Shown here: piece after piece, positions 4,349 to 37,041 of the stretch
Numbering within the stretch: the stretch's first letter is position 1
Layout of the letters: every line of letters starts with the position of its first letter
Assembly: GCF_947258935.1 (NCBI RefSeq)
Contig: NZ_CAMYKH010000004.1
Location: 6,101-70,100, forward strand
Length of the DNA stretch: 64,000 bases
DNA from: an uncultured Muriicola sp.
GTDB lineage: Bacteria > Bacteroidota > Bacteroidia > Flavobacteriales > Flavobacteriaceae
Reading direction: 5' to 3'
Made by a program: the position numbers and the translations under genes
The notes under the pieces: generated by a model
Databases searched by the model: none
Told to the model about the DNA's origin: nothing
Seen by the model: only the letters and a program-made list of their open reading frames with translations

Positions 4349-4711
4349 ATGCTCACTTCTATAAACCCAAAATTACCTATGCGTAGCAAAAAAGTTACCT
4401 ATGATTACTACATAAACAAATTGGGATTTAAAGTGGTTGGAAATACAGAATACGATGATTATTTGATGATACAAAAAGATCAAATTGAAATTCATCTTTT
4501 TAGGTTTGAAGAACTAAAACCAAAAGAGAATTACGGGCAAGTATATATACGAACAACTAATATTGATCTAGTTTATAAATCCTTTTTGGATAATAATATT
4601 CGCATTCATCCCAATGGATATTTAGAAGAAAAACCTTGGGGTCAAAAGGAGTTTTCAATTCTGGATCCGGATCATAACTTACTTACTTTTGGCCAGCCTA
4701 TAACCAAATGA
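4349..4711 (+). CDS. VOC (glyoxalase/bleomycin-resistance) family protein
   Basis: 120 aa. The pattern of a beta-alpha-beta-beta-beta module and the ending KPWGQKEFSILDPDHNLLTF is typical of bleomycin-resistance-like VOC proteins. Confidence 0.65.
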   Translation: MLTSINPKLPMRSKKVTYDYYINKLGFKVVGNTEYDDYLMIQKDQIEIHLFRFEELKPKENYGQVYIRTTNIDLVYKSFLDNNIRIHPNGYLEEKPWGQKEFSILDPDHNLLTFGQPITK

Positions 4712-33571: not shown

Positions 33572-34654
33572 ATGATCCAAGACTTATTAAAAAATCCGGT
33601 TTACAAATCAATGTTAGTTGTTTTGGGAAGCCTTTTGTTGATACTTATAGCCTATTGGGTAACGGTCAAAATTATAAACCATTTCGGGAAAAATCCTAAA
33701 TATTTGATCCCGTCTGGAAGTGTAAAAAAAATATCTCTTCCTCTTTTTTTCCTCTTTTTCTCATTTTTAATACGGATGCGCTCGCTTAATGAAATGCTTG
33801 GCATGGAAAGCTATGCCTATTGGTTTAAAAAGACCAGTACCCTGCTTTTTATTTTTTCCTTTACCTGGTTACTTATCAAGATCATTAAGTTGATCAAGCA
33901 ACTGGTCATTAGCAATTATGATGTACATACTACCGATAATCTCAAAGCCCGTAAGATATATACTCAATTTACCATCCTGGAACGCGTCTTTATCTTTATC
34001 CTGATCATCTTCGGCCTGGGGATCGCTTTAATGAGTTTTGATAGTATTAAAGAGATCGGAATCAGCATTTTCGCCTCTGCCGGGGTAGCGGGTATCATTA
34101 TTGGGTTTTCGGCCCAAAAAATGATCGGCGCAATTCTAGCGGGCGTCCAAATTGCAATTGCGCAACCTATTAAAATTGATGACGTGGTGGTCATAGAGGG
34201 TGAATGGGGCCGGATAGAACAGATCACCCTCACCTATGTGGTTATCGCTATCTGGGACAAAAGACGACTGGTGGTGCCTACCACCTATTTTATTGAGAAA
34301 CCTATACAGAACTGGACCAAAAGTTCCTCAGACATCATAGGTACGGTATATCTGTTCACGGATTACAAAGTTCCCATTGATGCACTGCGAAAAAAATTAA
34401 CCCGTATCCTCAAGGGTACAGATTTATGGGATGGCCAGTCTGATGCATTACAGGTTACCAATGCCACGGAAACCACTCTGGAGATTCGTGCCCTAATGAG
34501 TGCTAAAGATGCCTCTTCTGCCTGGGAACTTAGGGTCCATGTGCGGGAGAAAATGATAACGTTCTTACAGAAAAACTATCCGGAAAGTCTGCCGCATACA
34601 CGGGTGTTAATAAAAAATGAAGGAGAAACGGTCCCTCCTTCAAAAAAAAAGTGA
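33572..34654 (+). CDS. Mechanosensitive ion channel (MscS) family protein
   Basis: 360 aa with N-terminal TM helices. The conserved MscS core reads GAILAGVQIAIAQPIKIDDVVVIEGEWGRIEQITLTYVVI. Confidence 0.9.
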   Translation: MIQDLLKNPVYKSMLVVLGSLLLILIAYWVTVKIINHFGKNPKYLIPSGSVKKISLPLFFLFFSFLIRMRSLNEMLGMESYAYWFKKTSTLLFIFSFTWLLIKIIKLIKQLVISNYDVHTTDNLKARKIYTQFTILERVFIFILIIFGLGIALMSFDSIKEIGISIFASAGVAGIIIGFSAQKMIGAILAGVQIAIAQPIKIDDVVVIEGEWGRIEQITLTYVVIAIWDKRRLVVPTTYFIEKPIQNWTKSSSDIIGTVYLFTDYKVPIDALRKKLTRILKGTDLWDGQSDALQVTNATETTLEIRALMSAKDASSAWELRVHVREKMITFLQKNYPESLPHTRVLIKNEGETVPPSKKK

Positions 34655-34675: not shown

Positions 34676-35209
34676 GTGAAAAAAATTCGTGTGACTATAT
34701 CTAAGGAGACCAAGTTAGAATATGCCTTGCTGCATTCGCATAAAGACGAGATGATCTCATTTATAAAGGGGTATCCGGAATATTTTGATGAGGCTATTGA
34801 ATTAGCTATCCAAGATAAACAGCCATATTCCTGGAGGGCAGCATGGGTATTATGGAGTTGCATTTCTAAAAATGACCCCCGTATACAAAAATATATTCCC
34901 TTTATTATTGAAAGTATTGATGGCAAGACAGATGGGCATCAACGAGAATTGATAAAGATCTTACTTGAAATGGACCTTACCGACGAACAGGAAGGTTATT
35001 TATTCGATCTCTGCGTATCACTATGGGAACATCTGGAGAAGAAACCATCCGTAAGGTTTACGGCATTTAAGTTTATCCATAAGACTGCCTGTAAACATCC
35101 TGATCTGGCAAATGAAATACGATTGCTTGCACAGGAGAAATACATGCGCACATTGTCTCCCGGGGTACATAGATCTATTGAAAAGATGTTAAAGAATGTT
35201 CCTTCATAA
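34676..35209 (+). CDS. Hypothetical all-helical (HEAT/AlkD-like?) protein
   Basis: 177 aa with a GTG start. It is helix-rich with W/R-containing repeats (SWRAAWVLWSC). I cannot assign a family with confidence. Confidence 0.5.
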   Translation: MKKIRVTISKETKLEYALLHSHKDEMISFIKGYPEYFDEAIELAIQDKQPYSWRAAWVLWSCISKNDPRIQKYIPFIIESIDGKTDGHQRELIKILLEMDLTDEQEGYLFDLCVSLWEHLEKKPSVRFTAFKFIHKTACKHPDLANEIRLLAQEKYMRTLSPGVHRSIEKMLKNVPS

Positions 35210-35501
35210 CTACCCCAAATTCACAACGAAATTCCTATTTTCCTCATCTGATCTTTTTTATTTTCATTCAAAACGCGCAAATATTTCTTATGAATCTTAC
35301 AATTAATCTCTAAAGTACTGGGGCATGCAAAATTCTCAATCGGTATGGGAAGGGTCAACTCGCAATTCAAAACATCCGGATATGTTGTAATTTAAAACGT
35401 TTTTTCCTTAGAAAGGAAAAGTTGATTTGTTGCTTTCAGGGATGAAGTAGCAACTTTTATTAACTTTAACCTGGTGTTTTCAGAAACCTTTAAGATAGAG
35501 T

Positions 35502-36173
35502 ATGAAATTAAGTCTAAAGTTCTTACCTATTAAAGATATGTTTTACTCGGTTGTTCCAACGGTCGGAACCTACGGAGGTTATCTGCAAGGCATGGCACCA
35601 AAGTTGTTTCCAAATCAATGGATCGCTATTGGGATTGGACTTATATTATCAATAATTTTGGCCGTAATTTTTTATTTCGAAAATGTAAAGGCTTATAAAA
35701 AATCCCTGGCAGAAATTCTTGCTACTGGCTATTTTATGAATTTTACAGGAAGATTGGGGAAATTACTCAAGACCAAAACACCAATCCATTTTTCTTTCCC
35801 GGATGGGAGTATCAAAACATTTACCGCTAATCATATTTCAGTTGAAATTGGAATGCCAATAAGTTTGGCTTCACTAATAAAATATAGTGAAAAGATTGAG
35901 ATGAATTCTGATATTGTATACGTACGGGAAGAAACTTATAGCGAACCATTTTGGGTTCGTGCCAATGTTCAAGATGCAAAATTGATAGTATATGAGTTTC
36001 CCAGAACACTGTTTTCTATTTCAAGATATATGCGGAAAGACTTCACGAATAGCCAGAAGGCAGAGAAGAACTCTAAGAAAATATATTCCTTTTTTTCGGA
36101 AAAAATTGATCAGTTAAGAATCGAATATTCAAGTGAAATTTCGAATGAAAGATTAAATTTTATATCTGTCTAA
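35502..36173 (+). CDS. Transmembrane STING-domain protein (bacterial TM-STING-like cyclic-dinucleotide receptor/effector candidate)
   Basis: 223 aa with a TM helix QWIAIGIGLILSIILAVIFYF. The C-terminal ~160 aa align by eye to the human STING CDN-binding domain. The matches are LATGYFMNFTGRL~LAWSYYIGYLRLI, LIVYEFPRTLFSISRY~VLEYATPLQTLFAMSQY, SKKIYSFFSEKIDQL~EQAKLFCRTLEDIL and SNERLNFISV~NNCRLIAYQE. Confidence 0.7.
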   Translation: MKLSLKFLPIKDMFYSVVPTVGTYGGYLQGMAPKLFPNQWIAIGIGLILSIILAVIFYFENVKAYKKSLAEILATGYFMNFTGRLGKLLKTKTPIHFSFPDGSIKTFTANHISVEIGMPISLASLIKYSEKIEMNSDIVYVREETYSEPFWVRANVQDAKLIVYEFPRTLFSISRYMRKDFTNSQKAEKNSKKIYSFFSEKIDQLRIEYSSEISNERLNFISV

Positions 36174-36183
36174 AATATAATTG

Positions 36184-37041
36184 ATGCTAAATTCATTTCT
36201 TGTGAGATCTATACCATTATGCTTTTTCATCTTTTTGGCCTCTGTTACAACATGGGCACAAGCCATTACATGCTCACCGGAAAATAAAGAGGCAGTAATC
36301 CAAAAAATTCTGGAAGTAAAAGGTATAGATAATGAGCTTTTTGGGGAGGAGTTGGTGGCCATTGGTAAAACCTTTATAGGTGTCCCCTATGTAGCCAAAA
36401 CCCTGGAAGTGGGGGAAGAGGAATCTCTGGTGATTACCCTAGAGGGATTAGATTGTACCACCTATGTTGAAAATGTGCTGGCCTTTGGCCTGGTAAATGA
36501 AAAAACAGAACCCAACTTTGATTCCTTTGTAAAAACACTTGAAAAAATACGATACAGGGATGGGCAACTAAATGGATATGGTTCCAGACTACATTATTTT
36601 ACAGAATGGATCTCAGATAATGAAAAAAAGGGGTTGGTACAAAATATCACAGCTTCTTTGGGGGGAGCAGAAATAGACAAAAAGCTCAATTTCATGAGTG
36701 TGCACCGAGACCTTTATCCCCATTTAAAGGATGATAAGTCTTTTCAACACATACAGGAAACTGAAAAGAAATTACAACAGCAGTCGCTGTGTATCTTATC
36801 TCAGGAAATGCTGGCCATGAATGAAGATCAGATCCACTCCGGAGATATCATTGCCCTTGCTACTTCCATTGAAGGATTGGATGTTACCCATACCGGATTT
36901 GCGATCAGAGCTGATGACGGACGTATTCATCTCCTGCATGCCTCTTCCTCTGGAGCCGTTGAGATCTCGGCACTTCCACTGGTTGATTACCTAAAAAAAA
37001 TAAAGAAGAATACTGGGGTCATCGTTGCCAGGCCCTTGTAG
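36184..37041 (+). CDS. DUF1460 (N-acetylmuramoyl-L-alanine amidase-like, NlpC/P60-like fold) secreted protein
   Basis: The signal peptide is MLNSFLVRSIPLCFFIFLASVTTWAQA. GLDCTTYVENVLA contains a candidate catalytic Cys and a later VTHTGF contains a His. The ATG lies 10 nt after the STING-like stop. Confidence 0.75.
   Translation: MLNSFLVRSIPLCFFIFLASVTTWAQAITCSPENKEAVIQKILEVKGIDNELFGEELVAIGKTFIGVPYVAKTLEVGEEESLVITLEGLDCTTYVENVLAFGLVNEKTEPNFDSFVKTLEKIRYRDGQLNGYGSRLHYFTEWISDNEKKGLVQNITASLGGAEIDKKLNFMSVHRDLYPHLKDDKSFQHIQETEKKLQQQSLCILSQEMLAMNEDQIHSGDIIALATSIEGLDVTHTGFAIRADDGRIHLLHASSSGAVEISALPLVDYLKKIKKNTGVIVARPL

Follow-up and report, generated by a model that had tools for sequence, protein, structure and literature searches.

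A gene for a stand-alone, membrane-anchored STING protein lies among housekeeping genes of an uncultured Muriicola species, in a 64,000-nt stretch of contig NZ_CAMYKH010000004.1 (RefSeq assembly GCF_947258935.1, positions 6,101 to 70,100 of the forward strand; hereafter the window). The protein of 223 amino acids (aa) is a genuine STING-fold protein and belongs to a Bacteroidota clade that, in the contexts we sampled, was never seen encoded beside a cGAS/DncV-like nucleotidyltransferase (CD-NTase). The gene is under strong purifying selection. Judged from sequence, its ligand pocket looks maintained while the lid, the specificity-determining element, differs. Our best reading of its origin is a transmembrane (TM) STING effector of a cyclic oligonucleotide-based antiphage signalling system (CBASS) that turned into an unlinked receptor.

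Profile and structure searches identify the protein as a STING. The Pfam family prok_STING (PF20300) matches residues 70–192 with E=9.6e-18 (64.9 bits against a cut-off of 27.1), and a profile built from 30 family members reaches the Larkinella STING in the PDB (8HWI) at 2.9e-9. A broader family profile recovers ten STING entries in the PDB, among them FsSTING (6WT4) and CgSTING (6WT5), which the clade reaches only with this broadened profile, at about 1e-8. The window protein's own sequence found no STING in a phmmer search of the PDB; the protein is therefore distant from the crystallised STINGs, and a family profile is required. An AlphaFold2 model made from the family alignment has a mean predicted local distance difference test score (pLDDT) of 82 and a predicted template-modelling score (pTM) of 0.71. 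The best 50 matches listed by Foldseek against the PDB are all STINGs, bacterial ones first and human ones later, with E=3e-7 and target TM-scores of 0.61–0.73 at the top. PADLOC matches the window protein to just the STING half of a TIR-STING effector model, and a lookup of its exact sequence returned no contig. The stem helix, LAEILATGYFMNF, bears the stacking aromatic F81, and the pocket strand YEFPRTLF bears E165, P167, R168 and T169. A first-pass annotation, made from the DNA alone, had called the open reading frame (ORF) a STING on an alignment by eye to the human protein. The searches bear out that call, and its alignment blocks are consistent with the profile alignments: LATGYFMNF is the stem helix with the stacking aromatic, and YEFPRTLF is the counterpart of human EYATPLQTLF and of bacterial D-[FI]-P-x-T-L. 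NCBI already names these proteins 'STING domain-containing protein', so the domain itself was known.

No cyclase was found with the STING gene in the window, as the same annotation had noted. PADLOC, run on 57 window ORFs, found neither a CBASS cyclase nor defence-island neighbours, and its matches were housekeeping look-alikes (cysteine desulfurase and dCTP deaminase among them). SMODS, GGDEF and DisA_N are absent from the 25 families listed, of 36–37 matched in Pfam, for each window half; the families present are those of ribonucleotide reductase, ferrochelatase, the hem operon, Suf and similar genes. Motif expressions for GGDEF and DAC matched nothing in the window. A tblastn search with a genuine STING-linked CD-NTase also matched nothing there, and across all 33 loci compared it matched the control loci only.

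The same absence marks the relatives, and a stand-alone TM-STING receptor without a linked synthase, proposed for this locus, holds clade-wide (33 loci, 16 contexts). By gene map the 33 loci form 16 context groups, and even the commonest neighbour family is present at no more than eight loci. We sampled 21 loci that cover most of these groups and took in 127 neighbours within 4.5 kb; no CBASS cyclase appears among the best 25 of the 38 PADLOC families matched by these neighbours, and no defence-island neighbours were found around the relatives sampled. Five contexts with precomputed Pfam annotation hold no SMODS within 10 kb. The neighbourhoods consist of heme, Suf, ribonucleotide reductase, tRNA synthetase, EF-Tu/NusG and similar genes, and the 22 immediate neighbours include Trp synthase alpha, DeoC, ferritin, MscL, acyl-CoA dehydrogenase, Pirin, GNATs and PepSY_TM. 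The control, the CBASS-linked TM-STING P0153 (210 aa; loci L054/L055), has a SMODS/DncV-like gene 13 bp downstream and is surrounded by restriction-modification and HTH/S24 genes. One PADLOC match among the 127 neighbours, PycC-like, was rejected as a partner: it is an ordinary class III cyclase domain present at one locus only. By motif it probably traces to L017:12251-13153 (-), a gene with a class III adenylate/guanylate cyclase domain that is downstream of and convergent with the orphan STING gene, about 1.6 kb away, in one metagenome-assembled genome (MAG).

A second, more distant group of metagenomic 2TM-STINGs is likewise without CD-NTase neighbours. Among the genes around them are those for peptidase C1, a Tle1-like lipase, aconitase, ClpB and acetyl-CoA hydrolase. 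The Tle1-like phospholipase (L041:6700-7863, +; PF09994, E=2e-78) begins 28 bp after its 2TM-STING gene on the same strand, and the two could form another STING-effector pairing. At L053:2671-7371 a canonical TIR-STING (P0171) is flanked by a patatin gene on one side and two TIR_2 genes on the other, with no SMODS or CD-NTase annotated in the 5 kb upstream and about 2 kb downstream.

Strong purifying selection acts on the STING gene. Against its closest relative, a 96%-identical MAG copy, the ratio of nonsynonymous to synonymous substitution rates (dN/dS) is 0.084. Against other relatives the proportion of synonymous differences (pS) is 0.71–0.91, with synonymous sites at or near saturation, while the nonsynonymous proportion (pN) is just 0.07–0.33. 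The window gene and 16 relatives, spread over four classes of Bacteroidota, are each exactly 669 nt long, with the frame intact, no indels and 36 invariant residues.

The gene is patchily distributed across the phylum, though vertically inherited and highly conserved within genera, and so is not a universally conserved syntenic core gene. We ran a pattern-based scan of one genome per species, whose pattern restricts its sensitivity, over 185,579 species genomes and obtained 31 loci. They fall in Muriicola, Marixanthotalea, Confluentibacter, Arenibacter, Flaviramulus and Lentiprolixibacter, and further in Cyclobacteriaceae, Chitinophagaceae, Mucilaginibacter and Parapedobacter. The homologues number 127, nearly all of 221–226 aa, and every named source is Bacteroidota. 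Between the window and Muriicola sp. E247 the STING protein is 87% identical, within the 50–90% range of 14 syntenic housekeeping neighbours; in the Muriicola lineage the gene is therefore vertically inherited and no less conserved than the heme enzymes. The window protein is 68% identical to a Cyclobacteriaceae copy and 59–65% identical to copies from Chitinophagaceae and Parapedobacter, and only 45–46% identical to some from Flavobacteriaceae.

Base composition also sets the gene apart. At 0.333, its GC content is the second lowest of 56 window genes, whose mean is 0.407 (z = -2.5), in agreement with the first-pass remark that it looked richer in AT than its flanks; across relatives, its GC is mostly a few points lower than that of the host. 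The lowest GC among the window genes belongs to a 120-aa ORF at 4349-4711 (+; GC 0.309, third-codon-position GC 0.256). Patchiness, low GC and class-crossing similarity together suggest horizontal spread, and occasional transfer across the phylum is likely. Searches of viral contigs, phage records and plasmids returned no relatives, so we rejected a mobile-element origin; nor was any integrase, phage or plasmid link found.

The clade appears to keep the floor of the STING pocket, and its lid is different. Ko et al. 2022 (PMC8748872) describe how bacterial STING recognises c-di-GMP: a Phe or Leu of the stem helix stacks on the base (PcSTING F171, FsSTING F92) and an Asp contacts guanine N2 (PcSTING D252, FsSTING D169). 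A conserved lid motif, RXR or RX(Y/F), is the specificity determinant in the same account, with an Arg that reads guanine O6/N7. We mapped these positions through a sequence alignment to FsSTING 6WT4, whose chain numbering is offset by 73; the offset puts R151-A-R153 in GARARD, D169 in FDFPNTL and F92 in KNF. The stacking aromatic is kept as F81, which is aligned to FsSTING F92 and invariant in the clade. The acidic position of FsSTING D169 is E165 in the window and Asp in a minority of clade members. The most conserved parts of the whole protein are the pocket-floor motifs LAxGYFxNF and [ED]-[FY]-P-R-T-L-F.

The lid motif RX(R/Y/F) is absent throughout the clade. The window protein has Y146-S147-E148-P149 and the clade x-[SNQGKV]-[EDQ] at this site; 28 of 30 members carry E or D at position 148, and position 146 is variable. 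In alignment, R-x-[FY]-P-F-Y of the TIR-STINGs stands opposite Y-S-E-P-F-W, with FsSTING R151-A-R153 at the same site. In the AlphaFold2 model the lid is the block of lowest pLDDT within the domain (71). Two basic residues are typical of the clade: R153 (in W-x-R), present also in the CBASS-linked TM-STINGs P0147 and P0153, and R168 (in PRTL), where TIR-STINGs have PTTL. A third, R142, sits at the lid base four positions upstream of the motif and might stand in for the missing lid Arg; 24 of 30 members have R or K there. With the specificity-determining motif missing clade-wide, the protein is more than a c-di-GMP STING deprived of its cyclase.

A single strong TM segment anchors the protein. 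In a 19-residue Kyte-Doolittle scan hydropathy peaks at 2.81 over aa 41–59 and stays below 1.0 over aa 13–31, which matches the earlier description of a strong TM helix after a weaker hydrophobic stretch. Residues 39–90 form one continuous helix in the AlphaFold2 model, so the TM helix passes straight into the STING stem helix. The weakly hydrophobic segment ahead of it is yet well conserved: its mean conservation exceeds that of the TM helix ('TM2'), and F7, K11, D12, S16, P19 and T20 are invariant among 30 clade members. The model places a helix at aa 10–30 with low confidence. This segment may be a first membrane or interfacial helix and is the presumed output module. At least 90% of 29 distant TM-STINGs retain the Pro of its S-x-[VI]-P-[ST] motif, and the CBASS-linked P0147 and P0153 are among them, so orphan and CBASS TM-STINGs have a homologous membrane module. 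With an N-terminal TM module joined to a C-terminal STING domain, the protein is built like the CBASS TM-STING effectors; its second TM helix is uncertain, given the low hydropathy of aa 13–31. The basic ENVKAYKK after the TM helix points to a cytoplasmic STING domain, and the N-terminal 39 residues could be a hairpin partner or lie outside the membrane.

We favour, at about even confidence, a protein that would still be a receptor for a cyclic (di)nucleotide made elsewhere and would signal to the membrane, its ligand possibly endogenous c-di-AMP. An enzyme encoded elsewhere would make the cyclic (di)nucleotide, and the pocket floor (F81 by stacking, E165, P167 and T169) would bind it between two protomers. 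The continuous TM-stem helix would relay closure and oligomerisation of the STING dimer to the membrane segments at the N terminus, and membrane permeability or signalling would be altered. The ligand would above all be c-di-AMP, acting as an endogenous messenger. Replacement of the lid Arg (the reader of guanine O6/N7) and aromatic by Ser and Glu/Asp could amount to a guanine-to-adenine switch, in which the acidic side chain could read adenine N6.

Three considerations incline us to an endogenous ligand: the level of constraint together with the lack of a defence context, the resemblance of the lid change to a possible guanine-to-adenine switch, and the standing of c-di-AMP in a Bacteroidetes model, where it is the dominant and essential cyclic dinucleotide, c-di-GMP signalling is reported absent and c-di-AMP receptors are largely unknown (PMC9259658). 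As a hint only, a bacterial STING domain is able to bind c-di-AMP (8HWJ; PMC10739871). More tentatively, Bacteroidota may have domesticated a CBASS TM-STING effector and turned it into a housekeeping receptor whose ligand, c-di-AMP or some other nucleotide, is made by the cell itself. If so, the protein would link the messenger straight to the inner membrane, for instance to maintain osmotic or envelope homeostasis, and this would be the first bacterial STING outside antiphage defence and a bacterial parallel to eukaryotic membrane STING with its unlinked synthase.

Several points weigh against such a receptor. Our cyclase search covered gene neighbourhoods, and an unlinked CD-NTase may exist in the same genomes. 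A patchy, AT-rich gene whose similarities cross classes is more typical of accessory or defence functions. Canonical bacterial STINGs depend on the lid motif for tight binding, and without it the domain may be a weak binder or have a different ligand. In the sole tested case c-di-AMP bound a bacterial STING without activating it (PMC10739871). A toxic membrane effector placed under an essential housekeeping messenger would need extra control, and none is apparent. The mechanosensitive-channel genes found near some copies, described below, are anecdotal hints.

The main rival account is a defence effector served in trans. Here a CBASS-type TM-STING would answer the product (c-di-GMP or another) of a CD-NTase whose gene lies at another site in the genome or on a co-resident element, and phage infection would lead to membrane disruption and to death or arrest of the cell. 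The architecture and N-terminal motif shared with CBASS-linked TM-STINGs fit this account, as does a neighbour-joining tree, computed without support values, in which P0147 and P0153 are basal to the 2TM-STING radiation that contains the orphan clades. The signs of horizontal spread (patchiness, class-crossing similarity, low GC) point the same way, and E165 retains an acidic counterpart of the guanine-reading D169/D252. Yet no CD-NTase lies within about 4.5–10 kb in any context sampled, defence-island neighbours were not found there, phages and plasmids carry no copies in the searches above, and the conserved guanine-reading lid Arg is missing. Very strong purifying selection, with conservation like that of heme-pathway enzymes within the lineage, would also be unusual for an abortive-infection effector. 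We regard this account as possible, if doubtful. Another rival is a repurposed STING fold. In that case the domain would have given up cyclic dinucleotides for a small molecule of another kind (a linear dinucleotide, an alarmone or a lipid head group), or would be no more than the dimerisation or oligomerisation scaffold of a membrane protein with a different role. Loss of RX(R/Y/F) alongside gain of the clade-specific W151, R153 and R168 (PRTL against PTTL in TIR-STINGs) would suit it, and a linked synthase is found nowhere in the clade; the distant orphan 2TM-STINGs, also without CD-NTase neighbours, have still shorter lids (such as IDNGAWV). The residues conserved most, however, are G76, Y77, N80, F81, E165, P167, T169 and L170, the pocket floor of all nucleotide-binding STINGs; R153 recurs in the CBASS-linked P0147 and P0153 (as SFA[VI]RG), and the basic residue at position 142 could replace the missing Arg. 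Repurposing of this kind is unlikely.

Two further explanations have very little room. The first-pass annotation had raised a new module with the downstream neighbour, which is an AmiA-like amidase gene at 36181-37041, and STING would then regulate a cell-wall hydrolase. The amidase gene starts 8 bp past the STING stop on the same strand, the pair is retained in L007 (the 96%-identical MAG locus) and in Muriicola, and in Confluentibacter a lytic transglycosylase gene (SLT) lies directly upstream of STING. But the adjacency occurs at only three of the 33 loci (the window, L007 and Muriicola), all of one lineage, and the other 15 context groups have an unrelated gene downstream. We therefore rejected the amidase as a module partner and consider such a module highly improbable. 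More improbable still is a functionless, decaying CBASS remnant that has lost its cyclase. An unlinked cyclase and a missing lid motif are what such a remnant would show, but dN/dS of 0.084 rejects a pseudogene, and the frame stays intact and free of indels in all 16 relatives checked, with the invariant residues and spread over four classes noted above.

The orphan STING gene has no constant companion, and the genes nearest to it vary by lineage. A PepSY_TM protein of about 379 aa adjoins the orphan STING at eight of 33 loci, in the Confluentibacter/Marixanthotalea and Arenibacter groups; its gene is either downstream and convergent (L009, L010, L015) or upstream on the same strand after an unannotated 807-aa ORF (L013, L014, L018, L020, L029). 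We did not adopt it as a partner because it is restricted to these two genus groups. An MscS-family channel gene lies two genes upstream of STING in the window (33572-34654, +) and also in Muriicola, and in a Flavobacteriaceae MAG an MscL gene of the same strand (L026:1424-1861, +) follows the orphan STING after 52 bp. Two different mechanosensitive channels thus occur near STING in unrelated contexts, which may be chance. Between mscS and STING the window has a 177-aa ORF (34676-35209, +) without a match in Pfam, NCBIfam or PADLOC, 71% identical in Muriicola sp. E247. L007 lacks it, and mscS there ends 177 bp ahead of STING. In Muriicola sp. E247 a gene of about 1,380 aa (L008:5610-9773, -; FG-GAP, ASPIC, VCPO, Por_Secre_tail) lies between the hypothetical gene and STING, where the window has the intergenic gap alone.

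That gap, whose 292-bp length agrees with the first-pass annotation, may hold a promoter of the STING gene's own. The block ACTTTTATTAACTTTAACC (35453-35471), some 30–50 nt ahead of the ATG, is conserved in L007 and L008 and is a possible candidate for a Bacteroidetes-type -7 element. Two inverted repeats lie in the gap, one at 35393-35415 (TTTTCCTT-AGA-AAGGAAAA) and one at 35429-35454 (GTTGCT...AGCAAC), with the conserved block just downstream. Rfam found no riboswitch in the whole window, c-di-AMP and c-di-GMP types included, and no family in the gap. A sigma-70 promoter and terminator scan gave fewer matches than shuffled sequence; its consensus differs from that of Bacteroidetes promoters. 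Table 1 collects the coordinates.

Table 1. Features of the stand-alone TM-STING gene and its upstream region (window coordinates)
Feature	Coordinates	Strand	Remarks
Stand-alone TM-STING ORF, complete	35502..36173	+	223 aa, ATG start; end coordinate takes in the stop codon
Conserved N-terminal segment, aa 1-35 (MKLSLKFLPIKDMFYSVVPTVGTYGGYLQGMAPKL)	35502..35606	+	Weakly hydrophobic; conservation 0.69-0.74
Transmembrane helix, aa 40-59 (WIAIGIGLILSIILAVIFYF)	35619..35678	+	Kyte-Doolittle; basic ENVKAYKK next
STING cyclic-dinucleotide-binding-type domain, aa 62-223	35685..36170	+	Pfam, PDB profile, Foldseek, pocket conservation
Lid loop, aa 143-149 (EETYSEP)	35928..35948	+	Site of RX(R/Y/F) in canonical bacterial STINGs
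Upstream intergenic region, 292 bp	35210..35501	+	Sequence reading; three-way alignment with L007 and L008

The current picture of bacterial STING is of a CBASS effector tied to its operon, which reads c-di-GMP supplied by the adjacent CdnE. It has been described as operon-linked to a CD-NTase (PMC8748872), and the action of bacterial TM-STINGs has explicitly been called unclear (PMC10732462). The literature that we searched yielded no account of a bacterial STING clade that is orphan or stand-alone. Three features combine here: the gene is conserved and constrained, it lies outside an operon, and its specificity-determining lid is changed. The clade would show that bacterial STING signalling extends past self-contained defence operons, and would offer a tractable system for how a membrane-bound STING passes ligand binding to the membrane. 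It is a candidate for the missing c-di-AMP receptors of Bacteroidetes and would give a bacterial precedent for the unlinked layout of synthase and receptor in eukaryotic cGAS-STING. If the protein is a trans-served defence effector instead, it would document 'orphan' CBASS effectors that heed signals from elsewhere in the genome.

Among known systems, the clade shares its build with the CBASS TM-STING effectors of the Cap13 type (FsSTING, CgSTING and the control P0153). Both have about 210–230 aa, with an N-terminal S-x-[VI]-P-[ST] segment, a TM helix and then the STING domain. FsSTING F92 corresponds to F81, FsSTING D169 to E165 as the acidic residue before P-x-T-L, and P0147 and P0153 have the equivalent of R153. 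Those effectors have a SMODS/CdnE CD-NTase within about 13 bp, whereas the clade lies among housekeeping genes with none beside it; the lid is R151-A-R153 in FsSTING and x-S-[E/D] in the clade.

TIR-STINGs (Cap12; SfSTING 7UN8/7UN9, LaSTING 8HWI, ElSTING 8HWJ, PcSTING/MySTING 7EBD/7EBL) have been described as operon partners of CD-NTases (PMC8748872). They are the clade's best sequence-profile and Foldseek matches and share its STING fold and pocket floor. They carry a TIR NADase effector where the clade has a membrane segment, and pair an R-x-[FY]-P-F-Y lid with a PTTL strand, unlike the PRTL of the clade. Known bacterial c-di-AMP receptors comprise RCK_C/KtrA, PstA/DarA, CBS-domain transporters and KdpD-USP. 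Their folds are unrelated to STING, and the likeness would lie in the proposed role only, a response to an endogenous cyclic dinucleotide in membrane or osmotic homeostasis.

The nearest parallel comes from eukaryotes, in the choanoflagellate STINGs of genomes without a cGAS-like receptor (cGLR) (bioRxiv 10.1101/2025.09.04.674280). Like the clade, eukaryotic TM-STINGs, these included, are membrane-anchored and have no nucleotide source encoded next to them, and it has been proposed that such stand-alone STINGs sense nucleotides from others (bioRxiv 10.1101/2025.09.04.674280). They have four TM helices, against one or two in the clade, and Culbertson & Levin (PMC10732462) concluded that bacterial and eukaryotic TM-STING architectures are of independent origin. 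The orphan choanoflagellate proteins retain high-affinity c-di-GMP binding, which is doubtful in the clade with its lid Arg missing.

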